Shown here: positions 7,198 through 64,000 of the stretch, piece by piece | Layout of the letters: each line of letters starts with the position of its first letter | Position numbering within the stretch: the first letter of the stretch is position 1 | Source of the DNA: Macrostomum hystrix | Lineage: Eukaryota > Animalia > Platyhelminthes | Direction: 5' to 3' | Assembly (NCBI GenBank): GCA_950097015.1 | Contig: CATNEN010000001.1 | Location: 18,538,001 to 18,602,000 of the forward strand | Length of the DNA: 64,000 nt | Program-made: the position numbers and the translations under genes | The notes under the pieces: generated by a model | Told to the model about the DNA's origin: nothing | What the model saw: only the letters and a program-made list of their open reading frames with translations | Databases searched by the model: none

Positions 7198-7513
7198 TTT
7201 AATGGCCCTGAATTGGATTGTTCAAATGATATAATATAAATTAAAACTTTTTGAGACTGATTTTGTTACAATACGCACATTTCCTACACAATGCTCAAAT
7301 TTCTGATTGTCACAACGATGAACTAATAGACGCCGTGCCATTTAGTTTAATAAGCAATCTTCATGAAAACTTTTTAAGATCGCACGCAATTGCAACCAGA
7401 GGCCTTTGAAATTTTGCGCCGGATTCGAACGCACTTTAGTAAAGATCTAAATCAGTGCACAAGCTCATCAATCTGGTATTTCCTGCTTTGGCTGTTGTTG
7501 CTGCTAATTATGG

Positions 7514-9403
7514 ATGATGGTATGTATTAATTTTGCATTAAAAATTCTCACACTGAAATCCAACAGCTACGAACGTCAGATAGACGAGACAGCACTGAGC
7601 TGTGATCTCCACTCCGCCATGAACACAGCGGGATTCACCGAAGCCCGAGCTGAAATGCAGGCCAAGCTTTCAGACGCACTGCAAGACATTGTCAGACTGC
7701 GATGGAACGATAGATGCCACATTGTGGGTAGCTACAGCGACGGCTGGGGAAACAGTTTGAGTCGCATGGATGGCGTTACGGACGCTGATGCGGACATCGA
7801 CCTGACGCAGATTTTGTGTCCCAAAAAATCACAAATTCATATTGATGGCGCTTGTCGCTGCATCGGATCTGCTACAATAAAATACATAAATGGGCATGTT
7901 GAACATACAGGTCAAGGTAGGTCTGAGCAACCTTGGTCACTATTGATTGTATATTGCCTATAGTACAATTCCGAATACGTTTGACATTTGACCACAGAGT
8001 CCAGTCCAGCTATTGAGTACGCGGCCTCTCCCATGCGACCAGCAGTGGACATCATCCGAGCACTCCCCTGCTGCCAGTATCCTGAAATCAAAGTTCTCAA
8101 CGAAGGTTACCATTCTCACATTGCCTCCGCAACGATCAAACTGCTCATTGCCATAACGCAGGATCCAAAGATGCCGTGTCATCTAGTTTGTGCTGCTCCA
8201 TCTGGAGAAGAAAGTCAGCAGATGAGGGTCAGCACCAGCTTCTTGGAGCGGAGGCTGATGCGAAGCTTAACTAGCGTGCAGGGACAGGTGTTTGTACTGC
8301 TCAAGTACTCGCTGAAGAGACTGCTCTCAGAGAGGGCCCACGGCATCAAGACGTACCACGCAAAGACATTGCTTTTTTACATGCTTGAATCCACGCCACG
8401 CGATGACTGGAAGCCGACATGTTTAGTGTCGAAAGCAAAGGAGGGTCTGCAGATGCTTCTCGACAGCTTGAAGGAAAGCCATTCTGAACACGACCAGTGC
8501 ATGCGGCACTTTTTTCTAAGAGATGCCTGGCTGTATCTGAAGAAGGATAACAGTGGCAAGAAAATGATCGAGGAAGCCCTGCTGAAACTCATCGATCGAT
8601 TTCCTCAGCTGATGCTAAAATTCATAGATACTCTTCGCCCCCTTAGGGGTGACAGGCTGTTTGAATTTCATCCGTTTGTCGTGAATCCCGAGACTCGGCT
8701 ACATCAAACACTTCAAGAGTCCGGGGAGTTTTTCTATCACGACCTGCCGGATGTTGTAGCAGAAATTCTGCTGAGTTTGTCGCGCGACCGGCGGGGCTGT
8801 GAAAACTTCCAGATGAACCAATTGTTGGAAACTGTTCGAAGGATTCCAGATTTTGCTCGTACCGCTAGAGAATGTCTGAAGATATTGACGCATCTGAAAT
8901 TCGGAGAGCAAGATGCAGCAAGATCATTGCTTATAAGGGCCATAGATCATCATCCTTCTGATGGAGTCAGCGCAACCGCAATCTCAATTAAGGAACACCT
9001 CGAGAGCAGAGACTCCGCATGGAAGTTCTGTCTCTGGTTTAGTGACAGGTCACCGAATCTCGATTTTCTTCCCGATCGATTCAAGCGAACAAAGCGACAC
9101 TTTTTAACAAAACTGCAGCTAGCTCAGCTGCGGTTCATCAACTTCTCGGCCCTGATTCGCTGCCTCTGCCTCGATCTGGATTTAGCAAACTCTTCAACAG
9201 CCAGTCAGTGGTTTGAGGAGACCTTGCACAGCGACAAGCCCGATGTTCAGCAGTTGCTAATGACGCTGGAGTTCTGCGCCGATGTTTCTCAGCTTTCCAG
9301 ACTGATCGACAAGCACCGGGAGATTGTCTGCGACCTTCGAGTTGCCAGGCTAAAGATTGTCGAGCTGCTTGCGTGCAATGTGAGGTCTTTTACGATCCAT
9401 TAG
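7514..9403 (+). CDS. Mab-21/cGAS-like receptor (cGLR) nucleotidyltransferase. Intron 7917-7997; exact start uncertain
   Basis: NTase signature IVGSYSDG...DADID, third acidic residue in AVDII, Mab-21 C-lobe motifs MRVSTSFLERRLM, VFVLLK, IKTYHAKTLLFY, CMRHFFL; the phase-1 splice joins ORFs 7514 and 7988. Confidence 0.8.
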
Positions 9404-32292: not shown

Positions 32293-35200
32293 TGTGGCGG
32301 AAAGTGCAAATTTTCATGTCGTATCTTCTAACCCTAACTTCATTTTCTAACCCTGTTCGGTTGTTTGGGCATGTGCATGCCTCCAACTCATTGACATACT
32401 TTGAATATGTACAACGCGCGTACATCGCTTAATCGCGCGTTCACTTTCTTTACCGAGAACCCTGCGGCTTTAGTCCACCTCCAATTTTCACCTTCGTGGC
32501 AAGCCAAAGCTGTGTCATTCTAACCATTGATTCTATAAAATATACCGTCAGCCGGCCCTTTCTAGCCTACCGACGTCTGTAGACAACAGCTGAAAAACTA
32601 CGAAAGACTGGACATCTAGACGAGTACGACAAAATCCTGCAAGAACAACTCCGACAAGGGGTTATTGAGCCCGTGCCGAAAGATGAGGATCCGCAAACAA
32701 TCAAGCACTACCTTCCTCATCTACCGGTTTTCAAGGAGGACAGCTCCACAACACGACTTCGAATCGTGTTTGATGCAAGTGCAAAGACATCGATGAGCTA
32801 TTCGCTAAACGAAGTACTTGATCAGGGACCATGTCGCCTACCATCGGTCTTCTCGCTACTGCTGCGGTTTAGGACTCATCCGATTGCATTGATCGCCGAT
32901 GTCGAGAAAGCCTTCCTGCAAATAACAATCCAAGAGCCGGACCGCGACGCCGTGCGCTTCTTATGGCTAACACGGCATCTCGAGAAAGAATCGAACGTTC
33001 TCATCCTACGTTATGTCCGTCTTGTGTTCGGCTTAGTGTGCAGCCCAGCAATACTGCAAGAGGTGCTTCTGTATCACCTTCGAAACACGAAGCAAGCTTC
33101 ATTCAAGATGCGCGAGCAGCTGGCGCGCGATACGTACGTAGACAATCTAGTAACCGGAGCACCCTCCGTCAGCTCAGCGATTGAACTTTACAAGCGGACT
33201 CGAGAAATCTTCCAAGAAGCCTCCATGAACATGCGGGGATGGATTTCGAACTCTATGGAACTCACCGAAATGTTCAGCGCAGACGGTACGGGAGCTCAGC
33301 CCCCGACCACGGTCAAAGTGCTCGGCATGCTGTGGAATCCTCATAAGGACACATTCGAACTCTCAATTCGCGATCATCCGACAGTGAAAATAAAAGAAGA
33401 AGGAGTAGAACTTACGAAGCGAACGACACTGTCTGCCTTCTCCAAGACATTCGACCCTCTGGGGCTGCTCAGTCCACTTCTAACGCGACCAAGATTGCTG
33501 TTTCAACAAAGCTGCCGTCTGAACGTCGAATGGGACGCTGCGCTTCCAGAACCACTAAAGAGTCAATGGAGCGAGTGCCTCAATGACTTGACAGACTGGA
33601 CATGTCGCATCGATAGACCAGTTTCAGCTTTCAGTTCAGCCTCTAAAGAGATCCATGGCTTCTGCGATGCCTCACCGGTAACGTATGCCGCCTGCGTCTA
33701 CCTACGATCTACATCCGAATCAGGAGATGTTCGAGTATCCCTTCTCGCAGCCAAATCTCGCGTTGCACCAGTTGCGGAAACTACAATTCCGCGGTTGGAG
33801 CTGATGGCAGCCAAGGAACTCGCTAAACTGATCCACGAGGTTCGAAGAGAGTTCCCCGAAGTCCCGGTGACCTGTTGGAGCGACAGTATGGACTCACTGT
33901 GGTGGATAAAATCAGTGCACAAAGTCTGGAAAGCTTTTATCGAGAACAGAGTAGCATTCATCCGAACGACAGTTCCACCGGAGCAATGGAGACACTGTCC
34001 CGGAAAGGACAACCCGGCGGACGTTGCAACCCGACCAGTCGACCCGGGAGCATTTGATGGTCGATCAGCATGGTTTCGTGGGCCTTCGTGGCTGAAAACC
34101 AACTTTTCAACATGGCCCGTCCAGCCAGAGTTCATTGAGAAGTCGAGCAGCGAAAATACCGTCTATGCAACGGTGACAAGCAATGCTCTCCTGAGTAGGC
34201 ACATTGATAACATCATTGAGCTACAGAGGTTCAGCACACTGGAAAAGTTGCTCCGTGTCACTGCGTGGGTCCTCCGCGCAGTCCAAATGTTGAAATGTCG
34301 AACACGATTTCTGGCCAGCTCTCTTACCTCCGAGGAACTACAGGCAGCCGAACACCTCTGGGTTAGCTCTCTGCAGGCAAAGTCCTTTACTGCTGAGATT
34401 AAATGCATCACGTATCAAACTGCTAAGACACCGTTACATCAGAATCTGCGCTTGTTTATAGACCAGGATAACGTCCTACGCTGCACTGGACGTCTAGGAG
34501 AGTCCGATCTTTCGCCAGACCGTAAGTCACCTATTCTGTGCCCGACAGACGACAACTTTCAACGGCTGCTTATCAGACATGCTCACAGGAAAGTAGCCCA
34601 CGGAGGGGTAACGGCCACATTGGTACAGATTCGCGAGAAGTATTGGATGCTGAAGGCGCGACAGAAGATCAAATCGGTGCTTAGGCGGTGTAACACATGC
34701 ATTAGGTTGCAAGGTTTGCCATACAAAGTTCGACAGCAGTCTCAGTTACCGTCTTTTCGAATCGAGTCGCTCAGAGCATTTCAGCACGTTGGCCTCGACT
34801 ACTGCGGTCCACTACTCTACCGCAGGGGGGAGGGTGACGACCAGCACAAAGCCTATATTCTGCTATTCGTGTGTACCAGTACCAGAGCAGTCCACCTTGA
34901 AGTGGTGTCAGACTTGACCACTCAGCCATTTCTACAAAGCCTTCGCCGTTTCTGTGCTCGCCGTGGAATACCCTCCATTATTTCCGACAACTTTAAGACG
35001 TTCCACGCTGCAGCGCGTCTGCTTGATACCCGACCAGCACCGCTACAGACTACAGATGGTCAAGAGTTCCTGACAACCAAGAGAATCAGCTGGTCATTCA
35101 TTCCAGAGAGAGCCCCATGGATGGGAGGGTTCTACGAGCGTCTAGTGGGCGTTGTGAAAGCAGCACTCAAGAAGACCATTGGCAAGGCATTCCTGACTCT

Positions 35201-36517
35201 GGAAGAATTATCGACAGTGGCGTGTGAGATGGAAGCTGTTGTCAACTCACGCCCGCTCGGCTTTGTCGCGTCCGAAGCTCATTCAGAAGTGATCACCCCG
35301 AGCCACTTCCTCGTGCTCAACCGGCTAACTAACGATCCAGAGGCTACTTCTGAGACGTTGACAATATTGCCACTGCCAGAGAGATTGAGTCGAGTTCGGC
35401 AGACACTCAACAGATTCTGGCGAGAATTCAAGAATGAATACGTCCTAGCTCTGCGCGAGCGCTCCATTAGAGAAAGTCGAACGTCTACTCGCGAAGTCAT
35501 GGTCGGTGACGTTGTGTTGGTCATGGACTCCGGCGTGCCGAGGCTGCAGTGGAAGTTAGCCGTTGTGGAAGCGGTTCACCATGGTCGAGATGGTTTGGCG
35601 AGATCATGTCTTCTCCGGTTAGCGAATCCACAGCGTCGTTTCTCATCTCATTTTCGTCGTCCGGTTGCATTGCTGGTTCCTCTTGAAGTCTAAGCGCGCG
35701 CTGTCTCGCTCTTTCTCATCTTGTCTATCGCGTTTTTTCTGTTCTCCGTTCATTTCCCTCTAGTGCTTCTTTTCCGGCGTGCCGCTCTTTGTTTTTATTA
35801 GGAAGCTCAAGTTGGCGATCTTATATTCACGTCTATATTTATATTTGTTGTTATTCTGGTAAAGGCTCTTTAAACCGTGTCTCAATATTGCTTTTCAGTT
35901 TTCAGTGTTCTTTTTCTTGAGAGCTAAAAGTTTTCTCTTTTGGTGTTGGTTATACAGTATCCTAATTCGTTGCGCCTATTGGCTACACTATTATCTTGTT
36001 TCGTTTGTTCTGTGCACGAGGCCAAAACTTTCGCGGCTTCGACTCTTCTGCGTAGGCTTGTACTATTCCATTCACTTAGTCTTTAAGCTGATAATCTCTA
36101 CGTATACTCCCGATGCTATGATTTCTCGAACAGTTACTTCACTCGCTCGTGTGCATTATCCCTTTCCTTTTTGAGCCAGTGACTCGAGCATCGGTCACTG
36201 GCGGGGGAGTGTGGCGGAAAGTGCAAATTTTCATGTCGTATCTTCTAACCCTAACTTCATTTTCTAACCCTGTTCGGTTGTTTGGGCATGTGCATGCCTC
36301 CAACTCATTGACATACTTTGAATATGTACAACGCGCGTACATCGTTTAATCGCGCGTTCACTTTCTTTACCGAGAACCCTGCGGCTTTAGTCCACCTCCA
36401 ATTTTCACCTTCGTGGCAAGCCAAAGCTGTGTCATTCTAACCATTGATTCTATAAAATATACCGTCAGCCGGCCCTTTCTAGCCGGACCTAGTTTCTACA
36501 AGCTAAATTTAACTACA
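32293..36517 (+). mobile_element. BEL/Pao LTR retrotransposon #1, young and internally deleted (end of 5' LTR, PBS, gag and protease missing)
   Basis: LTR copies 32293-32567 and 36210-36517 (TG...CA, 1 mismatch over 275 shared bp); PPT GGCGGGGGAG before the 3' LTR; 5-bp TSD GCCTT at 32288-32292 and 36518-36522. Confidence 0.95.
32673..35693 (+). CDS. pol: BEL/Pao pol (RT-RNase H-integrase), open for 1006 codons but 5'-truncated
   Basis: YLPH.PV, RIVFDAS, ADVEKAFLQ, YVDN (RT); HGFCDAS, TIPRLEL, WSDS, NPAD (RNase H); H..H..C..C, GLDYCGP, SDN, GGFYERLV (integrase). Confidence 0.95.
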   Translation: MPKDEDPQTIKHYLPHLPVFKEDSSTTRLRIVFDASAKTSMSYSLNEVLDQGPCRLPSVFSLLLRFRTHPIALIADVEKAFLQITIQEPDRDAVRFLWLTRHLEKESNVLILRYVRLVFGLVCSPAILQEVLLYHLRNTKQASFKMREQLARDTYVDNLVTGAPSVSSAIELYKRTREIFQEASMNMRGWISNSMELTEMFSADGTGAQPPTTVKVLGMLWNPHKDTFELSIRDHPTVKIKEEGVELTKRTTLSAFSKTFDPLGLLSPLLTRPRLLFQQSCRLNVEWDAALPEPLKSQWSECLNDLTDWTCRIDRPVSAFSSASKEIHGFCDASPVTYAACVYLRSTSESGDVRVSLLAAKSRVAPVAETTIPRLELMAAKELAKLIHEVRREFPEVPVTCWSDSMDSLWWIKSVHKVWKAFIENRVAFIRTTVPPEQWRHCPGKDNPADVATRPVDPGAFDGRSAWFRGPSWLKTNFSTWPVQPEFIEKSSSENTVYATVTSNALLSRHIDNIIELQRFSTLEKLLRVTAWVLRAVQMLKCRTRFLASSLTSEELQAAEHLWVSSLQAKSFTAEIKCITYQTAKTPLHQNLRLFIDQDNVLRCTGRLGESDLSPDRKSPILCPTDDNFQRLLIRHAHRKVAHGGVTATLVQIREKYWMLKARQKIKSVLRRCNTCIRLQGLPYKVRQQSQLPSFRIESLRAFQHVGLDYCGPLLYRRGEGDDQHKAYILLFVCTSTRAVHLEVVSDLTTQPFLQSLRRFCARRGIPSIISDNFKTFHAAARLLDTRPAPLQTTDGQEFLTTKRISWSFIPERAPWMGGFYERLVGVVKAALKKTIGKAFLTLEELSTVACEMEAVVNSRPLGFVASEAHSEVITPSHFLVLNRLTNDPEATSETLTILPLPERLSRVRQTLNRFWREFKNEYVLALRERSIRESRTSTREVMVGDVVLVMDSGVPRLQWKLAVVEAVHHGRDGLARSCLLRLANPQRRFSSHFRRPVALLVPLEV

Positions 36518-39500: not shown

Positions 39501-40272
39501 TGTTCGATTCGTGTGGCTTCCTGACTCCTTTCACAAATCGCGGTCGGATTCTGCTGCAGGAGATTTGCTAGAATGGCGCAGATTGGGATGAGCCGTTGGA
39601 CCAGCAAATTGTTGAGAAGGCAACACATTGGGCAGCGCAGATTAGAGAGTTGGACAGTCTGAAAGTTCCACGATGTCTATGGCCGGATCCGACTAAAAAG
39701 GCCGTGCTGCACGTCTTTGTGGACGCGTCTCAGATGGCCTACGGCGCTGTTAGTTATCTTCGAAGTTTAACAAGTGACCACAACGTCTGTGTTCGATTAG
39801 TGGCATAAAAAGCGTGCGTAGCTCCTCTCTTAGCATAGCATTCCAAGGCTTGAGCTCATGGCGGCGGTGCTAGGTGTTCGACTGGCTCAGACTGTAGCAA
39901 AAGGGCTGGGATTAGAAGTGAAGACAGCCGTATTCTGGAGTGACAGTAAAAACGTTCTTTGGTGGCTTCGAGGTCGAAGCAGGATTTTCAAGCCGTTCGT
40001 AGCGCATCGTGTCGCATTCATTCAAGAGACTGTGAGATCCGGCCAGTGGCGCTACATGCCGACCGACCAGAACCCTGCCGACATCGTGTCGCGAGGATGC
40101 AGCGCTAAAGACCTTTGCGATTCGTCTGTCTGGAGAGATGGGCCAGTGTTTCTGATGCAGGATGAGGATGGATGGCCTGCGAAGCTAGTTCCGACATCAG
40201 ATGATGGTGATCGAGAGGTTCGTCGAGAAGCTAGAACGGGAGATGCAGCGCCAGGGATAACGCTGCTGGCAA
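36576..40272 (+). pseudogene. gag-pro-pol of BEL #2 (fragmented)
   Basis: ORF pieces 36576, 37086, 38225, 38543, 38732, 39084, 39389, 39596 and 39858 follow BEL domain order. Confidence 0.85.
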
Positions 40273-41125
40273 CCCGGTGTAAAAAACATCGTCCGGCGGA
40301 CGATGATTTTTTGGGTCCGCCGGACTCTGCTTTTCGGTCTATTGTACGCATAAATATAGTCGAAAAGACGTCCGCTTTCGGCCGACGGACGACTAATTTC
40401 GGACCAGTGTAAAATGTTGTGAATACTACTATTAGTAGTGTAGCTCTGAATAAAAATTGTATTCATTATTGTCTCGTATTATTTTAAATAACTAATTAAT
40501 CACAAAAAAAGATTTTGATTTTCTTATTAAAAAGAAATGTTATCGCACGTTTTTATTTTAAGTTGCAAATAAATTACTCATAGCATAAATTCATAAAAAA
40601 TTATATTTGCAAGTTATAAAAGAAGAACAATTTGGAATAGAAATAAGCAAGACAGAACTTGCTACAAAATTAGGATTATAGAAAAACTACAGGCAAAAAT
40701 AAAGAAGGCAAAGTATAAAATACAGATAAAGTATTAATAATAATTAAATACAACGCAAACAGACAGCATAGACACTGGGTCAAAATATTAAAAATTTAAA
40801 TACATAGCAAGGAATATCATTGTGTACTATACTTAACGTAAATAACTTTGCGCGTTTCTAAAGCATGTAGGAAAATAATCGAAAGGAAGACGAATAAGTT
40901 TTATACGTCACGAACACTACAATTTTTATCTGTATAAATCAAGACACAAATACAATTTGGAGTATAAATTGTGCCACTTATGTCCCATTTTAGCTACTCA
41001 CTAGCAAGTCGTTAGTAGTAGCATACTAATTATAGTTTCGAAAATAAACAAATGGTGGGACTTATGACAATTATGACAGATTTATAAATTTATAATTTTA
41101 TTATTAATATTAATAATAAATCAAT

Positions 41126-44100
41126 TTATAAATCTTCTGAGCTGCTGCTCGCAACTCGAGGGCGCTTTCGAGCCGCCGTAGCTCCAGATGCCGCAGCTCC
41201 GACCGCCGCATCTCCAGATGCTGCAGCTCCGGCCTCCGCAGCTAAGGCCGCTGAAGCTCCGGCCTTCGCAGATCCGACCGCCGCACCTCCAGATGCCGCC
41301 GCCGCGTTGCGCTGCCCGGCACTGATTCGCCGCTCCTTTGCCGCCTGCCTCTCGGAGGCGTGTTTTAGGAGGTTTTTTAATTCCCTCTCCACGTCGGACT
41401 CCGATGGTCGACTTTGCTGGTGGTAAAGCACGGCGACAGCGTCTGAAAGTGTTCAGAGTCTCAATGACGAAATGCTCCTGATATGATTGCCTAATTTGCC
41501 CATAACAATTTCATGTTGCCTTACAATAATAATACTAATAATAGTGACACTAGACCCAAGGGCCAGTGCAGGTGTTGGTGTATCAAGCACACTAGCAGGT
41601 GGGGACTGCATTCCCCGGCTTTCTCGGACACCTGTTGACAGCCGCGTGTCAGCAGTGGAATTTATTTTTTCCAAACAAATCGGCAGCATTCGAACCCCAC
41701 TGAATAGCCACACAAAACTGCTTTATTACACGCCAGTCGGAATTATTATTAACCGACGAAATGTCGGCGCTCATTTGCAGCTGAGTAGACTGTGTGCACA
41801 TCAGGGCAAAGCAGCTTGCCAACGGCTGCACGAATAGTTCTAGACTAGGTCGGGAATTTGCATGAATATGATGAATATCTTACCTAAGAAAATACTGCTG
41901 AAATTGCGGAATCCCAGCTGGTCGTCCGACAACTCCACGCCTGGTTCGGCCTCGCGCAGTCTCGCCGACATGTGTCGTCCTGACCAATTGACAACACACT
42001 GCATGTTGCTAGCAAGGCACTTGTTCAGCATGCGCTTGCATGTGTCGTGGACTGTGCTTCCCCGACAGCTACGGAGGCATTCGGCCTGTTTGAGGTTGAT
42101 TTAGTATATTTTTAGTTTTTAGTGTACTGTTAGTACACAAAATTTATGTGTACAGTGGTCTAATTTTTTTTAAATGGCTTAACTTGTAAAAAGTTGTGAA
42201 TACTACTATTAGTATTGTAGCAGTGAATTAAAAATCGTTCAAGACAAAAATATAATACTCACCAAACGCCCTTGTTGCACTCTGGAATTCCGGAAATTCA
42301 CGTAGTCACTCCAACTCGAAATCGGAGTGAAATCCGGTTGCCCAGCGTTGTTAGACCGCTGACCGAGCTGCTGCAAACCGAGCTGCTGCACACCGAGCAG
42401 CCGCTGCTGCAACTGCTGCATAAATTCAGTCAGTCTCGCCGACATAGCATCAACTGACGAATTCATGTCTCTCCGGAGAGCTTCGACAGCGGCATGTGTC
42501 TCATAGCATCTCCTAGCAGTCAGGGTCGCCAAATAAATGGCCGTCTTCTGGGATGCAGGGTCCAGGCCGCTTGTTCGCAGCCGATTCTCAATTCCGGCCA
42601 TAGAGGAGCCTGGTTGGCCCAGGAATCTGCCATAGTCTTTTCACAATGTTAAGTGAAGGGACGGGTTGATAAGTACGAGATAAGTTTGTAACTAAGCAAG
42701 TCTCTTTGCGAATTACAAATCAATAAGATTGTGAATGGATCAGTGAGTCTGAATGATTGAATAGTGAGTCTACAAATGAGTTAATGCAGAAATATTATTT
42801 TAGAACCTTACCATCAGCCACTTCCTGATGGAATGAGATGCTCGGTGAACGCTGAATGTCTGATGGCCCCGAGCATTTTGGCACAGTAGTGGCGTCATCA
42901 TCTGTGAATGTAAGCAGAGTGGTGGGGAAATAAATTAGACTCTGAATCACAGTTTGTAAATCTGCTAGTAATTGATTGAGTAAGTCTGAATGAATGAACC
43001 TGTGAGTGAGTCTGTCAATGAATTGAACAGTGAGTTTGTGAATGAATTGAACAGTAAGTCTATAAATTAATGAACCAGTGAGTCTGCGAAATTCTATGAA
43101 TCCGTGAGTTTTTGAATACGTGTTTGTATGGAACCAATTTAGTCAAAGTATTATAGACTCTTACCATTAACAATAACAATCGGAGATTCCATTGCGCCGG
43201 TTGAATGCAGGTGGTTCTCCTGGTCCTCCAGCAGTCTTTGAGGTGAGGATGTGGACGTGGATGGGATCAGTGTCGCGGTGCTGCTAAATCTTAGCAGCTG
43301 CGGTCGATCAGGCAGAGGAGCTGCTTTGGAGCCCACATTCCTCCGATTTATGGCCTCGGAAGCTTCCCTCTCGCTCTCCGAGGTAGTAATGTTCTGTTTT
43401 AATTTTAGAAGGAAATGTGGTGATATGCAGTGTAATGAATTGTGTTAGAAGTCAAAACGAACTCCAATTTTAAGTGTCTCGGCTCTCGCTGGGGGCAGAC
43501 AGAAAAGGAGGAACAGAAGATCAGTGTGTGGAGCCCAACCAGTCAGGCTCAACATTATATTCGAGGGCTCTGGGCCCAAGACAAAGCAGGCTACAACAAG
43601 CGCAGGGGAAGGCATGTGAACGCACAACGGAAAACTCGGTGCGCAGTGCCCATTAGAAAGCGTACAGCGCCCATGAGTCAGTCAGTGGCCCTACAAACTG
43701 AGTACAATTGCAAGCAGACAGTACAGTGTTAGTTTTGTGCGGTCAAAGTTCCGGGGTAGCTATTCTGCTTATTGACAAACTCAATTTGTGTGGATTAAGT
43801 CTGTTAGTGAATGAACCAGTGAGTCAGTAAAAGAATAACTGAGAGCGTGTGTAAATGAATTAATCAGTGAGTCTGTGAGCAAATGAATGAGTGCGTCTTT
43901 GATCTGTGAATGGTTTAAGCAGTGAGTCTACTTGGATAACTAATAAAAATGTCTGCTGTTTATTAATAGACAATCTGTTATAGTACAATTTGTAGTGTCC
44001 TACCTGAATGGCTCCTAATCGGTTTCGGTGGCGCCCGGCATTCACCCGACAAACGGCCTTCAGCAGCGAGTCCACACTTTTCTTCTTGATGGTGCGCATT

Positions 44101-44348
44101 CTCCGCAGGTGAAGGACGGTTGGCGTGCTGTCCACTTCTGGGTCAGTGACCACCTGGAGGAGAACGGCGTCATACCATTCGCCACTGTACTCTGCCCTCA
44201 CCTCAATTCTCGTTGCTGAGTACAGTTCCGAAGGCTCCATGCTGGCCCAGTCAAAATCCTGGTATTCACCAAGCATAATCTCTGTCTCATCTACTTCTAA
44301 AATTTCACCATCATTAGAGAAAAATACAATATAGCGATTGGACTGCAT
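41126..44348 (-). CDS. DUF4806/BEN-like accessory protein, ~509 aa. Exons 44348-44004, 43393-43165, 42901-42812, 42609-42263, 42085-41884, 41442-41126
   Basis: Six exons with GT-AG borders total 1530 nt and stay in frame; coiled coil followed by GSTVHDTCKRMLNKCLASNMQCVVNWSGR...SESDVERELKNLLKHASER (DUF4806/BEN-like pattern); beta-rich N-terminus. Confidence 0.75.
41530..41855 (-). mobile_element. SINE family B, 5'-truncated, in the last intron of the DUF4806 gene
   Basis: Closely matches 61030-61360. Confidence 0.85.
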
Positions 44349-44413
44349 TTTAAGCTTTTATAATAGCTTCAATATAAGAATTTGAGAGACTAAGTAGCTA
44401 GAAGTTTTCTAGA

Positions 44414-46338: not shown

Positions 46339-49091
46339 ATGTCTAAAAGACGGACTAAAGGCGACACGAACCCACGACGAAAGTTTCAAAATTGGCTCAC
46401 AAAGAACCTACTTGACTTTGCGGACAGTGATGTAGAAATGGACCAAGTGAGTTTTCAATTTTTATTGAGTTTCTATTTAAGTTTCATGCAAGTTTGTGAA
46501 GAAATTTGACGAGGGTGGGGCAGACAGGCAGGATTGACGGGGTGCTAGGTTTGATTGATTGCCTCGAATTTTATGCACAGTTTCATCGTCGTCTGTTTTT
46601 CCTCTTTATTTTCAATCAGGAGGTTGCATCTTCCCATGCAGATGGCGCAAGCCTCATTCCACCTGAGGATTCGCGGCCTGATTCTACCAGTGCCGGTGTC
46701 AATGCCTGTGACCCCATGCATTTATCAGCTAATAACGAGGCTTTCGACGAAAGTGAGGCTGATGAGTTCGACTACGCCGATCACTTGTCAACAGATGCGG
46801 AAGATGGGGACCCAGGCCAAACAGCAAAGCCATCATTGGAGAGCCTGAATGAGGAGCTTCTAATATTCTTCGTTCGTTACAACATCTCACATCGAGCGAT
46901 GCAGTTCCTGCTCAATGCTCTAGTCTGCCGAGGCCTGCCGGTCGCAAGAACAGTGCACCGTCTGCGCAAAGAACCTTCGGCTGAAGCAGTACAAATACAA
47001 AAGTACACCATGGGTAGTGGACACTTTTCCTACATCGGTATTGCTTCGAACCTGGCGTTCCTGATTCGCGGCGGCATGTTGGATCTTGGAAATCCGGAAG
47101 CCACCCAGAATGACAGAGCAAGGTTGGAACTGGACATTGATGTTGGCATTGACGGAATGCCGATTTACAATTCGTCAAACTACGCGGCATGGCCTATTAT
47201 CGTTAAGTTTTCGAGATTCTGTCGCCCACTTCCTGTTGCTGTGTATGCTGGGTTGGGTAAACCACCTCTTACCGAGTACCTGGCCGACTTCATCAAGGAG
47301 CTGCAGTCCTTCATGACCGACTTTGTCGAAGTTGATGGGGTGCTAATCCACATCAGGAACATCACGTTCATTTGCGACACGCCAGCGCGGTCCTTCATTA
47401 CCGCAACTTTGGGCCACAACGCACATCACGGCTGCCCCTACTGCAGAGTGGTAGCCCAGACGGTCGACCGGCGAATAGTCTACCCTGTCGAAGTCGGAGA
47501 GTGTCGCACAGCTGAGGATTACCGTTTTAATAGGTGCGTGTGTGTGCATGGGGTTGTGTGTATGTGTGTGTGCTTTTGCGAATTTTGTATACCAGCTTAT
47601 ACATCTGTATATGCCTACATGGCAGGATATCTGACATGTTTTTACATGTCTACGAACCTGACCTGACGTTGTCTTAATACGTGAATCAGTTAATCATATA
47701 AATATGCAAATGGCTGTATCGCGATATGGCAACTAAAGAAATGTGATTCCGATTCAGACTGTCTATATAATGGCTGTCCTTTTAAATCTCAAAAATTATT
47801 CACATACTTGCTATATACAATATAAAATATACAATATTCAATATACAATAATATACAATAGCTCGATTCCCGACTCCACTGAAAAAATTTGTGTCCTTTA
47901 GCAAGACACTTAACTCTGCAGTGCTTCGGTTCACCCAGCTGTTAAATAGGTACCAGCATTAGCTGGGGTAATTGAAGGTGGGTGTATGGCGTCCTCCCAG
48001 TCCATGGACTGAACAGCCGTACGCAGCCTTCAGATGCGCCGCGCATTAGCTGCGGCTGTGCTGTCGATTGGGGCAGGTGTAATCAATTATTATTATTACT
48101 AGTCTTTATCGCCAACAACTACTGCAGGGAATCCAACCAGCGGCATGAACCAAGTCCGCTCCTGTCACTGCCAGGCTTGCAACTACCTGATGCTTGCCCA
48201 CCGGAGCCAATGCACCTGCTCTTTCTAGGCGTCGCTAGGCGTCTTTTCACCTTCCTCTTTGCGGTGGATGACGGACGGCGGCGCAAAATTAGGCCGGATC
48301 AAGTTTCCGCACTTTCTGATTTTGCCGAATCACGTGCTATATATACACCGACAAATTTCCAAAGACGCCCTCGGAGAATCGACCGAGAACTCGGACATTT
48401 CAAATCCAGCGAGTTCCGCACGTGGACTTTGTATGTGGGCCCGTATTTTTTTCGCAAATTTCTGCCAACAGAGTTGTACAGGCATTTTCTTCTATTTCAC
48501 TTTGCCTGTTATGTTCTTTGCTCTGATAGCCCACAGCCTGAACTTCTTGATGCCGCTGAATCTGCCATGAAACTTTTTGTGTATGACGCAGCTCAACTGT
48601 ACGGCAACAGTTTCATGACTCACAATGCTCACGTTCTTTTGCACTTGTTTCAATACGCGAGGCAACGTGGAAATGTGTCCAACTTTTCGGCCTTTCCATA
48701 TGAGAACTACCTCTCTCACTTAAAGGGTCGCCTTCGAGTAACGCGCTTTGTATCATCTTACTTGCTAAATCAAATGCTTTCACTTCGCGACTTACTAGTC
48801 AGCAACCCAATTCAGCCCATTAAGTACTCTGTTAAGATGCCCGACAACTGTTGCATCGTGAATGGCTCAGTTGTTCGGATTACTTCTGTTCTTGGTGACC
48901 AAGTAACTGGCAATATTCTGTCGCTGCAAAAGGACTTGTATGACTATCCATATCCGTCCTCAAAACTGGGTATCGGAGTCTATTGTAAAACACGATCTTT
49001 TGTTACTGGCACTCCCCACAGGAAGTGCTTTCTGTTCCCGCGCAAGACCGGAAAGGCATGGCTGGTGATTCCTCTCTCTGGTGTTGATTAG
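46339..49091 (+). CDS. EnSpm/CACTA (Tnp2-like) DDE transposase, ~661 aa, apparently intact. Exons 46339-46446, 46620-47533, 48128-49091
   Basis: GIDGMP...WPI (D1), FICDTPARSF (D2), GHNAHHGCPYC, PEPMHLLFLGV, FKSSEFR, HNAHVLLH, SAFPYEN (E); 1986-nt spliced frame without stops. Confidence 0.9.
47862..48100 (+). mobile_element. SINE family C copy in transposase intron 2
   Basis: B-box remnant CTCGATTCC, TGTGTCCTTTAGCAAGACACTTAA...CACCCAGCTGTTAAAT.GGTACC core, (TTA)n tail; matches copies at 54865, 60215 and 60680. Confidence 0.8.
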
Positions 49092-49912
49092 TGGAATCGC
49101 ATTCTGTTCCACCCTTGTCAGCAAATGTAATTTTGACTGTTAATGTTTTGCATCAATTTGACTACAGACATAAAAATGTACAAATGTAAAAAACTGTATA
49201 CTCCCTGTATCCCTGTAAACTGTATACTGATATTGAGCAGCAAAGTCCGAATAGCAAAATAAATACCGGGAATCGGGAATGATAAGCGATAAGGTTTATT
49301 TGAGGCGGTGTGTGGTCTCCGATAACAGGAGTCCATTTTTCTTGCCGTCCGTTGCCTGAAGAACGCGTTGACACTTTAATGCCAAAACTTTGTTCTTTCG
49401 CACATTTTTACGAAATTCTTAAATCGAATTTAATTTTATAAGGCATTCGAAAGCGTGTCATTATCTTCGTAATTGCTTTTATTGTACGCGTACTCATTGA
49501 CTTAGAAGCTTAGTGTTTTAGCAACAAGCATGCTTCCAGAATCACTTAATTCCCATTAATTGAAGTGACTGCTAGAAACGGTAAACATCTAGCTAGTAGA
49601 GCTCTTCTGCATGGTCACAGGACTTGCACGGCCAAAAGAGGAAGGAGCAGCTAAAAAAAACTGATAAACTGATGACTGGTCTCCCCACCACAGACAGAAG
49701 GAAAGCCGGCCTTATCTTATCCATTTGGTCTGTGCTCCCAGAGAGAGACTTCTAGAAATAACAACTTCTAGAAACTTCTAGAAATAAAAAGTCTGTGTGC
49801 TCCCCTCCCCACCCCACTTGATCGGTCCCACCCAAACCCGTTCAGAGTCATTACACACTACACAGGAAATTATTTTGCGATTTATTTTCATCACAAAAGT
49901 ATTTAATATTTC

Positions 49913-51366
49913 ATGGATATAAGTGATCAGTGGCTAATATCTGACTGCGGAAGTGCAGACACAGCAGCGCCCGGTTTAAAAATTCGTTTAAAGCGCGTAT
50001 CGACCGCCCTCAATGAGGTGAGAATTCAGAGGCAGCAAATTATTTGAGATTGTAAAAAGTTTACAACTTTTCCTTTATTCTTTTGTTATATTTCTATTGT
50101 ACACTCACGTATTGCACGCATACATTGCCAGACTTCCCAACGCGCTGATCAGGTCAGGGTGACCTGCGAAACTGGCCCGGGACTTATAGTCCGATTCAAG
50201 CGACATTCTTGCGCAATTCCATCAACGGCTGAACTTCAGGTGAATGATAATGTATGTTACCTGCCTGTTCAATAACTTGTCCTTCTAAGTATTCTCCTTC
50301 TCCCCTCTGCAACTATAATCTCCCACTATAATCTTTGCATGTAGGCCCCGCGTCTTAATTTCTGTTATGCACATTCTCATGTTTCTGCATGAGAAAATAT
50401 TAAAAATGTTTAATTTTTCAGACTAACAAACGCGCTGTCCCTGAGGTCAACGTCGAATTATCCTTCTCCGACAGCGAGGAAGAGGGCGAAGGCAACTCAC
50501 GCGTGGATCAATCTTTACGAATCGCCCTAGCAGTATGTCCATTAGAGGTTCGTCAATCAATTGAGTGCGGTTAGATGGTGTGGCTGTATAAAGCTGATTT
50601 TGGGGCAAAGTTTCCTTTTCTGTAATCGTTTTTCTTTGAGTAACTTAATGAGAGAGGAGAGGATTAAGAGGGAGTAAAAAGTAGAGGCCGATTAAGTGAG
50701 ATGAGATGCAAACGAGATGTCAGCAAGCAAGTGAAATGTGAGAGAGGCGATGGAGAAAAGGGCGATTTAGAAGCATGAAAAAAAACAAATTAAATCGTGT
50801 TTAACTACACCCCCGCACAGCCTTTGCCTGACCCGACCGTTAAGAAGAGGCCGGCTCAGAGGCTCAGCCGATCTAGTGTCGATTATCGTCCCCCGACATC
50901 CACTAGAGATACAACCGAGCGCATACTGGGCATCAACGGGAAGACAGACACCGCGATCGCTGTTGCACCTGCGGGCGAGAAGGGACTGGGCGCCTTTGCG
51001 AGAATCAACCTAGCTGCGGGGGCGTTTGTCGATCAATTCGCCGGAATCCTGCTGAACGAACAGGAAGCGATTAGACGCGAATGTGAACCTAACTCCGACT
51101 GGATGCTATTTGAGTTTAAAGTTAACGGCAAATTATGGGTAATTGACGCCAGCAACAGTGACGGATTGGGAAGGTACCTGAACCATTCTTCTACTGCTCC
51201 TAACTGTAAAGCAAAGCTCATTATTATCGACCAGGGGCTGCGACCCGTCATTTATTTCGTGACAAATAAATATGTTGCAACGGGCACAGAACTGACGTTC
51301 GACTATACGACTGGTAGAGGTATCGATAATGATGATCTTGTGAAGAACCCATGGCTTCGAGACTAG
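49913..51366 (+). CDS. PR-Set7/SETD8(KMT5A)-like SET-domain methyltransferase, ~290 aa. Exons 49913-50017, 50132-50239, 50422-50532(or 50547), 50821-51366
   Basis: GEKGLGAFA, FVDQFAG, EAIRRE, MLFEF, WVIDAS, LGRYLNHS, GTELTFDY and a C-terminal NPWL as in SETD8 HPWL; the three upstream exons are phase 0 with GT-AG borders; AATAAA at ~51464. Confidence 0.85.
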
Positions 51367-52319
51367 AAAGACACGCATGTTATTATGACTCGTCGCTTAG
51401 TTTATTTTGCTAAATCTTTAATCATGTAACAATCATGTTTAATTATGTATATTCTTTATTACAAATAAAGCAATGGCGCATTGAGAAAATGGTTACTTTT
51501 CTGAAAAGTTTCTTGGAATTTGTGTCATAATTTTTTTAATCGCTTAATGTACTCGTACTCATTGGCATAATAAAGTAATAAAGCAAACAGGATGCTCCAG
51601 AATCATCAAGCAAGTAAATATAATTTAATAGTTTTATAACTCAGCAAATATCTTTTCCTAACAGACTGTACATATCTGTACAAATCTGTACATATTTTAA
51701 TTTTTCGAGACAAATAAAAGAGTATTTTTAGCGGCAGAGTTCTGCGGAAGTTCGGAACTGACTCGCGCCCCCAGTCTTTTAGGGATCTAAAACCAATTGA
51801 AGTGAGTCACAGAACTTGAACAGCCAAAAGAGGAGGGAGCAGCTCAAATAAAAACTGATAAGAATATTTAGAACGTAATGCATGTGGGTCTCCCCACCAC
51901 AGACGGAAGGAAAGCCTTATCTTATCAATTTGGTCTGTGCTTCCCACCCGATCAGTCCCACCCGATGTGCCACGGCGTTCCTGCATGGCTTTCGAAGTTT
52001 CGGAGAAGGGCAATGGGGAATTTATGAACAGGGACTATTTTACTTAGATAGACTTAAAGTTGTTTTAAAAAAGCTTGAAAACTTCATGATGAGCTTGAAG
52101 ATGAACTTTCCTTCATCATGAGGAAATCATTTGAAATCATGAAACCAACTCAGTCGTGTAGGAAATCATTTCTAGGTTGATTTTCAATTGAATCCGACTC
52201 GATAAACTGTGCTCAAATCTATTGGGACACCGACGACAGCCATATAGTACTGACATAGTCAGAGTTAAGATAAACTTTTCTAGGTGACTTTCCAGGTTAA
52301 TAAGTTCGAGTCAAATAAA

Positions 52320-54865
52320 TTTGATGATGATCCCCCAGTTAATGATGATCCCCCAGTTGATGATGATCCCCCAGTTGATGATGATCCCCCAGTTGATGAT
52401 GATCCCCCAGTTGATGATGATCCCCCAGTTGACAATGATCCCACAGTTGACAATGATCCCCCAGTTACCAATGAACCCCAGTTGACAATTATCCCCCAGT
52501 CGAAAATGATCCCCCAGTTGACAATGATCCACAAGTTGACAATGATCACTCAGTTGATTATGATCACCCAGTTGACAACGATCCCCCATTTGATGATGAT
52601 CCCCCAGTTGATGATGATCCCCCAGTTGATGATGATCCCCCAGTTGATGATGATCCCCCAGTTGACCATGATCCCCAAGTTGAAAATGATCACTCAGTTG
52701 ATTATGATCACTCAGTTGACAATTATCCCCAGTTGACAATGATCCCACAGTTGACAATGATCCCCCATTTGACAATGATCCCCCATTTGACAATGATCCA
52801 CAAGTTGACAATGATCAGTCAGTTGATGATGATTCCCCAGTTGACAATTATCACCCAGTTGACAATGATCCCCCATTTGATGATGATCCCCCAGTTGACA
52901 ATGATCACTCAGTTGATTATGATCACTCAGTTGATGATGATCCCCTAGTTGATGATGATTCCCCAGTTGACAATTATCCCCCAGTCGACAATTATCCCCC
53001 AGTTGACCATGATCCGCCAGTTGACAATGATCACCCACTTGATAATGATCCCCCAGTTGACCATGATCCCCAAGTTGACAAAGATTCCCAGTTGACAATG
53101 ATCACTCAGTTGACAATGATCACTCAGTTGATTATGATCACGCAGTTGACAATGATCCCCCATTTGATGATGATCCCCCAGTTGATGATGATCCCCCAGT
53201 TGATGATGATCCCCCAGTTGATGATGATCCCCCAGTTGACCATGATCCCCAAGTTGACAAAGATTCCCAGTTGACAATGATCCACAAGTTGAAAATGATC
53301 ACTCAGTTGATTATGATCACTCAGTTGACAATGATCACCCAGTTGACAATGATCCCCCAGTTGACAATGATCCCACAGTTGACAATGATCCCCCAGTTAA
53401 CAATGAACCCCAGTTGACAATTATCCCCCAGTCGAAAATGATCCACCAGTTGACCATGATCCCCAAGTTGACAATGATTCCCAGTTGACAATGATCCACA
53501 AGTTGACAATGATCACTCAGTTGATTATGATCACCCAGTTGACAATGATCCCCCATTTGATGATGATCCCCCAGTTGATGATGATCCCCCAGTTGACCAT
53601 GATCCCCAAGTTGACAAAGATTCCCAGTTGACAATGATCCACAAGTTGACAATGATCACTCAGTTGATTATGATCACCCAGTTGACAATGATCCCCCATT
53701 TGATTATGATCCCCCAGTTGATGATGATCCCCCAGTTGATGATGATTCCCCAGTTGACAATGATCCCACAGTTGACAATGATCCACAAGTTGACAATGAT
53801 CACTCAGTTGATTTTGATCACTAAGTTGATTATGATCTGCCAGTTGACAAGTATCCCCCAGTTGATGATGATCCCCCAGTTGACAATGATCCCACAGTTG
53901 ATTATGATCACCCAGTTGACAATGATCCCCCAGTTGACAATAATCCCACAGTTGACAATGATCCCCCAGTTGACAATGATCCCCCATTTGATTATGATCC
54001 CCCAGTTGATTATGATCAGCCAGTTGACAAGTATCCCCCAGTTGATGATGATCCCCCAGTTGAAAATGATCCCACAGTTGACAATGATCCACAAGTTGAC
54101 AATGATCAGTCAGTTGATTATGATCACTCAGTTGACAATGATCACCCATTTGACAATGATCCCCCAGTTGACAATGATCCCACAGTTGACAATGATCCCC
54201 CAGTTAACAATGAACCCCAGTTGACAATTATCCCCCAGTCGAAAATGATCCCCCAGTTGACCATGATCCCCAAGTTGACAATGATTCCCAGTTGACAATG
54301 ATCCACAAGTTGACAATGATCACTCAGTTGATTATGATCACGCAGTTGACAATGATCCCCCATTTGATGATGATCCCCCAGTTGATGATGATCCCCCAGT
54401 TGACCATGATCCCCAAGTTGACAAAGATTCCCAGTTGACAATGATCAACAAGTTGAAAATGATCACTCAGTTGATTTTGATCACTAAGTTGATTATGATC
54501 TGCCAGTTGACAAGTATCCCCCAGTTGATGATGATCCCCCAGTTGACAATGATCCCACAGTTGATTATGATCACCCAGTTGACAATGATCCCCCATTTGA
54601 TGATGATCCCCCAGTTGATGATGATCCCCCAGTTGATGATGATCCCCCAGTTGACCATGATCCCCCAGTTGACAATGATCCCACAGTTGACAATGATCCA
54701 CAAGTTGACAATGATCAGTCAGTTGATTATGATCACTCAGTTGACAATGATCCCCCCAGTTGACAATGATCCCACAGTTGACAATGTACCTCCCCTGTTG
54801 ACAATGATCCCACAGTTAACAAAGATCCCCCAGTTGATCATGATCCCCCAGTTAACAATGATCCC
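52320..54865. repeat. 2.5-kb 18-bp satellite (GTTGACAATGATCCCCCA)n inside the transposon
   Basis: About 140 units with recurring variants; diagnostic blocks recur at ~52460, ~53390 and ~54200. Confidence 0.95.
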
Positions 54866-55070
54866 TGAATTGCTTCAGTTCAACCAGCTGTTAAATGGGT
54901 ACCAGCATCAGCTGGGATACTTGAAAGGTGGGTGTGGCGTCCCGCCAGTCCATGGACTGAACAGCTGTACGCAACCTTCAGATGCGCCGCGCCATAGCTG
55001 CAGCTGTGCTGTCGGCTGCACATCTGGCCCAATTGGGGCAGGTGTAATCAATTATTATTATTATTATGGT
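54865..55070 (+). mobile_element. SINE family C 3' half abutting the satellite
   Basis: Matches 47920-48100. Confidence 0.8.
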
Positions 55071-56626: not shown

Positions 56627-57637
56627 ATGAATTTTGATAGCCGAAATACAACTGAATCCCTAAAGGTAAATCTATATGATTCGAGACAGTGACTGGTTGT
56701 TCTATGGGAGACAGTGGGTATCTACTAGGAGTATATCAAAATCTCGTAGATTTTCTAGGTAGCTAGCTTATAGCTAGAAAGACAGTTACTATAGCAACAC
56801 TTGATTGCGGAGAGTGGCTAGATTGTCTAGCTATGGGACACGGTGTCTAGATTGATTGTTCACGGGAGACAAGCTAATCGCAAACCCATTTATTCTTACC
56901 AGCCCGTCGATGACCTGGGCAGTCTAGACAATTTGGACTTCGCCGTGATGCGCTGCGAATTCAGTGACCTCCAGTCTTACGAAAGCGCTGCCCTCTTCGA
57001 TTTGTACAAGCCGGTTGCCAACGAAGATGACACTGGGGCCATGAGCGCATCGGAGTCCATCTGGTCCATCGGACAGCAACAGCATCCGCAGCAGCGACTG
57101 AATGCTTCGGCGATTGATTGCTCCCTTTGCTGGGTTCATTCGCTTGATCCGCCCACTTCGCATCTCCCAACGCATGTGCAGCCGCCAGGCGTCATAAAAA
57201 GAACAAGGAAGAAGCGTGCTGGCATCGGTTAGTGTTTTTGAGCTGCGAAAATTTGGGATTTGAGAATCTTTAGTATTTAACAACAATTAGCTATCAAAAC
57301 TTAGCATTGCCCAACCTCAGACAGGAATTTTTGGCTGTGGGAGTTTCTGTACCAGTTACTCGAAACTCCGTCTGTCGCTGACCTGTCGCCACAATGCTTG
57401 CGCTGGGAGAACAAGCTGGAGGGCATTTTCCAAATTCTAAACCCAACCGGCCTAGCAGAGGCCTGGGGCAGTTACAAGCGGCGGGACATGAGCTTTGAAA
57501 CGATGAAGCGAGCGCTGAGGCATTACTACGAGGACAAGCTTATCACCAAGACCCACCCAAGAGACAAGCACTTTTACAAATTTCACTTCGACCACGAGAA
57601 AGTAAAACTTTTTTTAGAAAAATTACAGACAAAATGA
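56627..57637 (+). CDS. ETS-domain transcription factor, ~226 aa. Exons 56627-56665, 56903-57227, 57321-57637
   Basis: WLWEFLYQLL...LRWENKLEGIFQIL...LAEAWGSYK...MSFETMKRALRHYY...FYKF is a complete ETS domain with both invariant Arg residues; 681-nt in-frame splice; duplicated TCTATAAATAG TATA-like motif at 56411-56434; AATAAA at ~57664. Confidence 0.88.
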
Positions 57638-60214: not shown

Positions 60215-60420
60215 GTGAGACAATTTGTGTCCTTTAGCAAGACACTTAATTTACTCTGCATTGCTTTAGTTCACCCAGCTGTTAAATGGTACCAGCATTC
60301 GCTGGGATAATTGAAGGTGGGTGTGGTGTCCCCCCAGTCCATGGACTGTACAGCTGTACGCAGTCTTCAGATGAGCCGCGCAATAGCTCCGCTGTGCTGT
60401 CGGCTGCAAATCTAGCCAGT
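60215..60420 (+). mobile_element. SINE family C copy
   Basis: Matches 47885-48065. Confidence 0.8.
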
Positions 60421-60679: not shown

Positions 60680-61020
60680 AATTAATAATAATCCATTAAC
60701 TAATTACAACTGTCACTATGGGCCAGATGTGTAGCCGACAGCACAGCTGCAACTATTGTGCGGCGCATCTGAAGACTGTGTACGGCTATGGACTACAGCC
60801 AGTACAGTCCCTCGACTGGGGATGGCTACACCCACTATAAGTTACCACAGCTAATACTGGTACCCATATAATAGCTAGCTGAACTGAAGCAATTCAGAGT
60901 TAATTGCCTATCTTAGAGACACAAATTTCAAATTGTTTCTTAAAGAAACAGGAGTCAGGAATCGAACCATCAACCTTCAAGATGCGAGTCTGACGCTCTA
61001 ACTGCTGGGCTACAACCCAG
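60680..61020 (-). mobile_element. SINE family C, full length with tRNA head
   Basis: Reverse complement GGGTTGTAGCCCAGCAGTTAGAGCG...GGTTCGATTCC (A and B boxes), followed by the family C body and an AT-rich tail. Confidence 0.8.
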
Positions 61021-61431: not shown

Positions 61432-61620
61432 AAGCTAGCTGTAAAATGGGTACCAATATTAGCTATTTGAACTTAAGGTGGGTCTGGCATCCCTCAGTCC
61501 ATGGACTGAACAGCCATGTGCAGCCTTTAGATTCGAGTGTATGCTGCACAATAGCTGTGGCTGTGCTCTTGACCATACTGCACAATTGGCCGGATAGGTA
61601 TAATAAATTATTAATTACTT
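61432..61620 (+). mobile_element. SINE family C diverged 3' half
   Basis: GCTGTAAAATGGGTACC...CAGTCCATGGACTGAACAGCC. Confidence 0.7.
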
Positions 61621-62694: not shown

Positions 62695-63720
62695 ATTCAC
62701 GTCGCCTTTTTACGGACTCAAATCGGACGGAAAACGGACCATCACAATTATGCGATTTCTACCTATTCTATATACTCCTAAATACATAGCTATTCGAGAT
62801 GTAATGCAATTAAAGCAGTTGCCGCATTATCAATCATTTTATACGGCTATTGAGCGGTTTACTGCAGACGGCCGGAATATGCATGGCCGACCAGAAGATC
62901 GAATTGTATACACGCTCAGAATAGTTTGATGATTCCACTATATACTCGTAAATTGCTTCACTGATGCACACAAATTTTATTTCCTAGCTCTCACTGATCA
63001 GTAAAACAGTAAGTATATGTGTAAATAATTTATATCTAAAAACTAAATATTACGATTATACAAACCAAACATTTAACTTGCTGCACTACTAACGTTTAAA
63101 TACGAGTAGTATTTCAAGCATGTTAGGTTCTGTACAGTAGATCAAAAAATTACCTTTTGCGGACTGGAATCGGACTGTTGGAATTACACAATTTTTCATC
63201 TTTTAAATGCATAAGTAACGGAAAATAAAGCCTTTTATGACGTTTTCAGCAGCTAACTCAAGAATTTTTTTATGGAACATCGTCCTCCTCGTCGCCCTTT
63301 TGAGGACTCAAAACGGACCGCGGACGCGTCGGCCTTTTGCGGACTAATTTCGGACTGTACGAATTACACATTTTTTCATCTTTTAAATGCATTTAGAACT
63401 GAAATCAAGGCCTTTTAAGACGTTTTTAGCAGCTAACTCACGAGTAATTTTTTTTGGAACATCGTCCTTCTCGTCGGCCTTTTTCGGACTCAAATCGGAC
63501 CATTTTGGAGCCGGTCGACGCGTCGGCCATTTTCGGACTAAAATCGGACTGTACGAAGTACACATTTTTTCATCTTTTAAATGCATTTATAACTGAAATC
63601 AATACCTCTTAAGACGTTTTCAGCAGCTAATTCGATTTTTTTTTAGCTGAGCTGACATAGGGTTAGATCGGACCGTAGGCGTCGAAAAGACGTCTTTTCG
63701 ACGATGCTTTTTACACCGGG
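62695..63720. repeat. Subterminal repeats of the CACTA right end: CGGACT-N4-TCGGAC motifs, ~190-bp tandem units and a 24-bp palindrome
   Basis: Motifs at ~62713, 63160, 63303, 63340, 63485 and 63535; perfect palindrome CGTCGAAAAGACGTCTTTTCGACG at 63680-63703. Confidence 0.85.
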
Positions 63721-64000
63721 AAGCGACACAAAGGAAAGTGACTGGCGGTTAAGCCCAGAGCGGTTTTCGAGCTACCGCAAATTGCGCAGCGTGACGGCAT
63801 GGGTTCAACGTTTCATCAGCAATTGTCGACTGCAAAAAGATCAGAGGAGAGTGGAAGAGCTCGAGGTTGCCGAGTTGCAAGATGCCGAGGAGGGGATTCT
63901 GCAAATGGCGCAAGAAGAGACATTCAAAGCTGAAATTTAAAAAATCCGTCATGGAAGGCCAGTCTCGTCAACCAGTCAACTCCGCTGTCTTCAACCGTTC
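63721..64000 (+). pseudogene. Continuation of BEL #2 pol after the CACTA insertion
   Basis: SDTKESDWRLSPERFSSYRKLRSVTAWVQRF...ELQDAE...AQEETF, homologous to RFSTLEKLLRVTAWVLR in BEL #1. Confidence 0.9.

Follow-up and report, generated by a model that had tools for sequence, protein, structure and literature searches.

The closest described enzyme to the one reported here is SETD8 (PR-Set7/KMT5A), to our knowledge described as the sole H4K20 monomethylase, the higher H4K20 states being written by SUV4-20. In the available parts of the literature, the methylation state produced by SET enzymes is said to be lower the more tyrosines surround the substrate amine, and in G9a, which has phenylalanine at the Phe/Tyr switch (F1152), the Y1067F substitution makes a trimethylase (PMC2797608). 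EZH2 Y641 mutants show a preference for dimethylated substrate and cooperate with wild-type EZH2 (PMC3914023, PMC3868588); EZH2 Y641, G9a Y1067 and SETD7 Y245 are given as the same position, and a mono-to-di switch is noted for SETD8 (PMC3868588). For yeast Set1, the Y967F mutant is reported to retain 50% of me1, 1% of me2 and 4% of me3 (PMC3585878). Human SETD8 itself requires an arginine anchor (R188/R192) for the methylation of nucleosomal H4K20 (PMC7893823).

SET genes have also been found as cargo of mobile elements. According to the accessible portions of the sources, they are carried by Phytophthora elements of the HarbingerS and MuDR groups (PMC12730594, citing Repbase Reports) and by an oomycete proto-Helentron, whose SET gene was compared with Clr4 (PMC4067079). 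Large expansions of KMT5A-like genes are known from Hydractinia (65), Hydra (24) and sea urchin (61), where many divergent copies stand beside one canonical gene, and the accessible text discusses neither a link to transposons nor active-site residues (PMC10368294). A survey of literature listings and abstracts, which did not extend to Repbase Reports or to the PMC10368294 supplements, turned up neither a transposon of an animal that carries a SETD8-like gene nor a natural SETD8 with phenylalanine at both channel positions.

Results

A SET gene carried by an EnSpm/CMC-type transposon

All coordinates refer to the window, a stretch of 64,000 nt from a Macrostomum hystrix contig (Table 1). A first-pass annotation of this DNA had called the SETD8-like gene cargo, and the gene indeed lies between both terminal inverted repeats of a DNA transposon. 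The element is flanked by a 2-bp target duplication (AA at 40271-40272 on the left and 63721-63722 on the right), subterminal short repeats occur near its right end (about 63150-63640), and copies of CGGAC/GTCCG cluster towards both ends, with 7 in the opening 600-bp bin, 11 in the closing one and no more than 3 in any bin between. It is inserted in a decayed BEL/Pao retrotransposon: the left-flank ORF has a Pao peptidase Pfam match, and the right flank resembles, by eye, the corresponding stretch of the BEL/Pao ORF at 32583-35693.

The transposase gene contains no internal stop, and its product harbors the motifs GIDG, CDTP, CPYC, HNAHVLLH and YENY. The sole homologue found, the unnamed protein P0163, is 33-40% identical over both long exons, and the Pfam match to DUF4218 is weak (E 3e-4, below the cut-off). 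The EnSpm/CMC group is defined, in the available part of the source, by a DDE transposase that bears C(2)C and H(3-4)H motifs (PMC12730594). Both motifs are present here, together with the short terminal inverted repeats, a duplication within the 2-5 bp range of the group and subterminal repeats as in EnSpm (CACTA) elements. However, the ends read CCC..GGG instead of CA..TG, the latter being usual in EnSpm/CMC but not universal, and the length of 23 kb and the SET and ETS cargo also differ from the usual members. CCC starts do occur in some EnSpm families of animals.

Besides the SET gene, the element contains an intact, open ETS gene, a second regulatory cargo, and a probable accessory gene for which no Pfam match was obtained below E 0.03 and Atlas matches stayed under 0.9. 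Two pairs of promoter-like modules, about 78% identical, precede or flank the genes of the element, one around the SET gene (Table 1) and the other at 44415-44733/45943-46314. Directly after the SET gene lies a minisatellite with an 18-bp unit present about 141 times (52327-54865), and a dispersed short repeat is present in five copies (47880-48101, 54865-55066, 60216-60417, 60683-60928 and 61437-61613), one of them in a transposase intron. Rfam gave 0 matches within 40000-64000. Outside the transposon, at 6239-9403 (+), an ankyrin-repeat ORF is followed by a Mab-21/cGAS-like ORF (Pfam), the two possibly forming one innate-immune receptor gene.

Table 1. Features of the transposon and its SET gene (window coordinates).
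Feature	Position	Strand	Basis or remark
EnSpm/CMC-type DNA transposon, 23,448 bp	40273-63720	+	Inverted ends, flanking duplication, transposase
Left terminal inverted repeat, starts CCCGG	40273-40293	+	21 nt, 95% complementary to right end
Right terminal inverted repeat	63700-63720	-	21-nt inverted ends
Probable multi-exon accessory gene; ORF pieces 43863-44357, 42242-42640, 41843-42100	41843-44357	-	ORFs
Transposase, 661 aa; three exons 46339-46446, 46620-47533, 48128-49091	46339-49091	+	GT-AG model
Direct repeat upstream of SET gene	49614-49739	+	Second copy 51806-51944, 78% identical, self-BLAST
Probable first coding exon, SET gene, ATG at 49913	49913-50017	+	X5 contig joins 50017 to middle exon
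Possible extra in-frame exon, SET gene	50132-50239	+	Donor seen in X5 joint; acceptor inferred
Acidic middle exon, SET gene	50422-50547	+	X5 and X9 contigs, GT..AG joint
SET-domain exon, SETD8/PR-Set7-like, 181 aa	50821-51366	+	Pfam, phmmer, fold, tree
QRLSR, aligned with PR-Set7 RRxxR arginine-anchor motif	50857-50871	+	Alignment
GLG, SAM motif	50983	+	Sequence
Phe at SETD8 Y245 position, VDQFAG; rare change	51037-51039	+	phmmer alignment
RYLNHS motif	51172	+	Sequence
Phe at SETD8 Y334 position (Phe/Tyr switch), ELTFDY; common	51298-51300	+	phmmer alignment
Catalytic Tyr, kept	51304-51306	+	Invariant in 42/42 alignment rows; only silent variant listed
NPWL, C-terminal end	51346	+	Sequence; no cysteine post-SET
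ETS-domain transcription factor gene, 198 aa; exons 56948-57227, 57321-57637	56948-57637	+	Pfam Ets E 7e-21, GT-AG model

The SET gene is intact and spliced

The SET-domain exon is open over 181 codons, is directly preceded by an AG acceptor and matches the Pfam SET profile with E=1e-12. Contigs from two studies (runs X5 and X9) skip the 273-nt GT..AG intron 50548-50820, and a further GT..AG joint in X5 skips 182 nt (50240-50421) after the possible extra exon. Run X5 is of unknown kind and X9 is RNA by our guess, none of the runs listed as containing the SET gene being recorded as RNA; the DNA runs X3 and X4 contained 0 of its splice joints. Both gene models, of 258 aa (three exons) and 294 aa (four exons), are open. 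The cargo SET gene is thus intact and spliced. In one contig of X5 the sequence returns from 51849 to 49656; a repeat artefact or a SET cassette in tandem may lie behind this.

The exon retains the SAM-binding GxG, RxxNHS, the catalytic tyrosine and the PWL end, as the first-pass annotation had read it. Upstream of these motifs, the segment aligned with the arginine anchor of PR-Set7 has glutamine in place of the first arginine in the M. hystrix copy, and a sister copy reads RRLSR there (X5 loose end before 50882, by eye). An RRxxR-like motif lies upstream in 30 of the 41 testable homologues with a PWL-type end.

A divergent member of the SETD8 family

In the phmmer alignments, the phenylalanine of VDQFAG falls on the phenylalanine of PDB entry 3f9z, titled SET8-Y245F, and that of ELTFDY on the phenylalanine of 3f9w, titled SET8-Y334F. 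Because the aligned entries are the mutant structures themselves, the equivalence to SETD8 Y245 and Y334 that had been proposed from the motifs is direct, and a misalignment of the pair is ruled out. From the motif alignments, we take SETD8 Y245 to be the position of EZH2 Y641 and G9a Y1067.

The proposed kinship with SETD8 was also recovered. An AlphaFold model of the exon product, built from a 42-row alignment, has a mean pLDDT of 85, and SETD8 chains hold all ten top ranks of the Foldseek search (TM 0.72-0.75). A tree of 35 rows, hand-picked from 151 and with motif-based group labels that we assigned, places the protein with the PR-Set7-like group (support 100/98), outside the core canonical group, and separates it from EZH2-, SET1- and ASH1-like proteins; in a quick tree that used all 151 rows the PR-Set7 placement stayed open, and the transposon protein formed a small clade with P0003 and P0046. 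The protein is only about 27% identical to SETD8, the best PDB sequence match is KMT2D (49.9 bits, against 44.9 bits for SETD8), and segments of the peptide cleft differ from SETD8 (WMLFEF for CYMYYF, YTTGR for YGDR). The GxG, RxxNHS, ELxxDY, catalytic tyrosine, PWL end and fold are those of the SETD8/PR-Set7 family, but the canonical Tyr245 and Tyr334 are both phenylalanine; we therefore describe the protein as SETD8-derived and do not class it as a canonical monomethylase.

The nearest full-length relative, P0003, is 43% identical and has tyrosine at 245 and phenylalanine at 334, while the nearest named relative, P0046 from Macrostomum lignano, has phenylalanine at 334 in a sequence that does not cover the 245 site. 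A protein search with a three-sequence profile yielded 6 matches, none closer than P0003, and a word-based protein search with the SET exon alone scored 0 of 97 candidates. P0003 and P0173, both SETD8-like, carry a C2H2-type zinc finger at the N-terminus, and P0173, named from Macrostomum lignano, has tyrosine at both sites. In P0063, a SETD8-like domain (Tyr/Phe) is fused to a Ulp1 protease; Ulp1 is a common transposon cargo.

Phe245 is rare and Phe334 is ordinary

Site counts were taken from the best 150 of 2271 phmmer matches at E<=0.001 in a whole-library search. Among these 150, the 245 site is tyrosine in 147, with one phenylalanine, one cysteine and one gap; the 334 site is phenylalanine in 53, and the two phenylalanines never occur together (0/150). 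The 66 of these matches with a PWL-type end include 18 with Phe334, and Phe245 is found in none of the 65 that have a residue there. On the counts in these best 150 homologues, Phe245 is thus rare and Phe334 ordinary. The first-pass annotation had treated both as equally noteworthy; this holds for Phe245 but not for Phe334, which P0003 and P0046 also possess. Since these relatives have it in common, the switch phenylalanine is older than the transposon SET family, and we ruled it out as a feature special to that family. Phe245 is the family's own change.

A metagenome scan, in which 80 loci were kept of 179 confirmed, used a pattern that forced phenylalanine at 334, so that its count at this site is unusable. 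All 80 loci are 25-38% identical to the SET protein, and Phe245, hence Phe/Phe, is present in 3 of the 73 assessable ones; none of the 80 matched the transposase homologue P0163. The three are short SET proteins (L061:2085-2423, L063:1785-2123 and L079:960-1520), and as they are distant, the pairing also occurs outside the SETD8 family. A multi-copy SET cluster in the fish Metynnis (P0027, P0166-P0169) has Phe245 in four of its five members, tyrosine at the switch and ND in place of NH.

Sister copies

Several diverged copies of the gene, about 85-90% identical and known from run contigs, are present in the sequencing runs, several of them within single runs. The 56 differences listed for the SET exon comprise 33 silent and 23 replacement changes against 130:413 sites, which gives a crude pN/pS of 0.22 (p=2e-8), with several subfamilies pooled and transition bias ignored. 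One of the two difference lists covers 40 of 153 rows, 32 of them in the SET exon; the second, complete list has by itself 12 silent and 12 replacement changes. The full table for the diverged contigs that span codon 334 contains no change in it, and none affects codon 245 among the differences listed (40 of 153), while the neighboring positions 51033, 51034 and 51036 do vary. This shows that the phenylalanine pair is a family trait and not the oddity of one copy. As Tyr-to-Phe is a one-base change and the lineages are few, its retention is no proof of selection. The decay of a single copy is ruled out by the open frame, the splicing and the silent excess in the sister copies.

At 51184-51186, NQS takes the place of NHS in some diverged contigs, and this form is dominant there in runs X5, X9 and X6. 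The histidine is otherwise invariant (42/42 alignment rows), and its replacement counts against full activity of those copies.

Discussion

Human SETD8 (PDB 1zkk, 3f9w, 3f9z) and the cargo protein share the SET fold, the PWL end, the GxG and RxxNHS motifs, the catalytic tyrosine, a possibly anchor-like basic segment and their placement in the tree; the cargo protein differs in its low identity, its two phenylalanines, its changed cleft, a short unrelated N-terminus and its residence in a transposon. EZH2 has phenylalanine at the switch. The combination of phenylalanine at the amine-binding tyrosine and at the switch thus has its counterparts, as far as the available parts of these papers go, in G9a Y1067F and EZH2 Y641F (PMC2797608, PMC3868588, PMC3914023). 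Both are mutations of other SET families, engineered or from tumours, whereas the cargo pairing, whose effect is a prediction, is natural, inherited and housed in the scaffold of a SETD8-type enzyme.

The first-pass annotation had listed three fates for the enzyme (higher-order methylation, another substrate, a weakened decoy) and chosen none. Because the G9a and EZH2 pairing favors trimethylation, we tentatively prefer the first, in the form of an enzyme predicted to bind nucleosomes and to take host-primed H4K20me1 further to me2/me3, a reading that we regard as possible rather than probable. The protein would dock on the nucleosome's acidic patch through its arginine-anchor-like segment; a nucleosomal substrate is favored by this QRLSR/RRLSR segment and by the RRxxR motifs of the PWL-type relatives. 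Phe334 would open space for a second methyl group, and Phe245 would let the substrate amine turn for a third while weakening the first transfer. With the catalytic tyrosine as the only one kept, the first methylation is predicted to be weak and the later steps efficient, and since Phe245 would weaken the first transfer, priming by the host PR-Set7 may be needed, much as mutant EZH2 relies on the wild-type enzyme. As a speculation, the transposon could gain by shifting those H4K20 states that direct repair or replication where its copies lie. The silent excess and the splicing argue against plain decay. On the other side, the partial loss of function in Set1 Y967F, the reportedly much lower activity of SET8 Y245F, the NQS form of some diverged contigs, the distance from SETD8, the changed cleft and the glutamine at the anchor all count against the higher-order H4K20 reading.

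Part of this contrary evidence is shared by a rather unlikely alternative, in which the protein is a weakened decoy that can bind SAM as well as the H4 tail and acidic patch but turns over poorly and competes with the host PR-Set7, so that H4K20 would be kept unmethylated near the element. Unmethylated H4K20 favors sister-chromatid repair after excision. The SET8 Y245F mutant itself is reportedly much less active, NQS replaces NHS in some contigs of the spliced type, and purifying selection would fit a binding role equally well. Set1 Y967F is likewise a partial loss of function, but Set1 has tyrosine at the switch and so does not present the same pairing, which in G9a and EZH2 is activating (PMC3585878 and the papers above, in their available parts). 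The M. hystrix copy, moreover, keeps the catalytic tyrosine, GxG, RxxNHS and PWL, which speaks against a decoy.

The low identity and the altered cleft can also be taken to mean that the enzyme is an active multi-methylase of some other substrate, be it a different histone lysine, the transposase or ETS protein of the element itself, or a silencing factor of the host. The best PDB sequence match, 5 bits above SETD8, is consistent with this, as is the N-terminal zinc finger gained by P0003; however, the tree and the fold group the protein with SETD8, and the PWL tail and a possibly anchor-like motif are retained, so that we consider this unlikely. Quite improbable, in our judgement, is a relaxed passenger, that is, an ordinary mono- or dimethylase in which Phe245 was tolerated and fixed early in the family without any special function. 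The single-base nature of the change and the recurrence of Phe245 in Metynnis and in the metagenome loci would be compatible with it. Against it stands the near-universal tyrosine at this site among the best 150 homologues, with no phenylalanine in the PWL-type matches, from which we conclude that the site is normally under strong constraint.

SET-carrying transposons as such are already known; what differs here is the rare Phe245 and the SETD8-like cargo in an animal. The oomycete elements resemble the present one in carrying a SET methyltransferase gene, but they belong to other superfamilies and hosts, and in the available parts of the sources the Helentron SET protein is not compared with SETD8 and no altered channel is reported (PMC12730594, PMC4067079). 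If the enzyme is merely weak, the locus would be a case of ordinary gene capture. At its fullest, and here we are doubtful, the higher-order reading would mean that an animal transposon encodes a neomorphic histone writer, a SETD8 derivative with a two-phenylalanine channel like that of EZH2 Y641F which converts H4K20me1 into me2/me3 without SUV4-20, and that many of the KMT5A-like expansions of invertebrates are such passengers. The tyrosine-count rule would find a natural test in a transposon-borne relative of SETD8 whose channel is opened, only single mutants having been crystallised in the SETD8 scaffold, and the element would offer an animal example of a mobile element with a histone writer. 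We hypothesise a transposon origin for the invertebrate KMT5A-like expansions, which suggests a testable source for dozens of divergent KMT5A-like genes.
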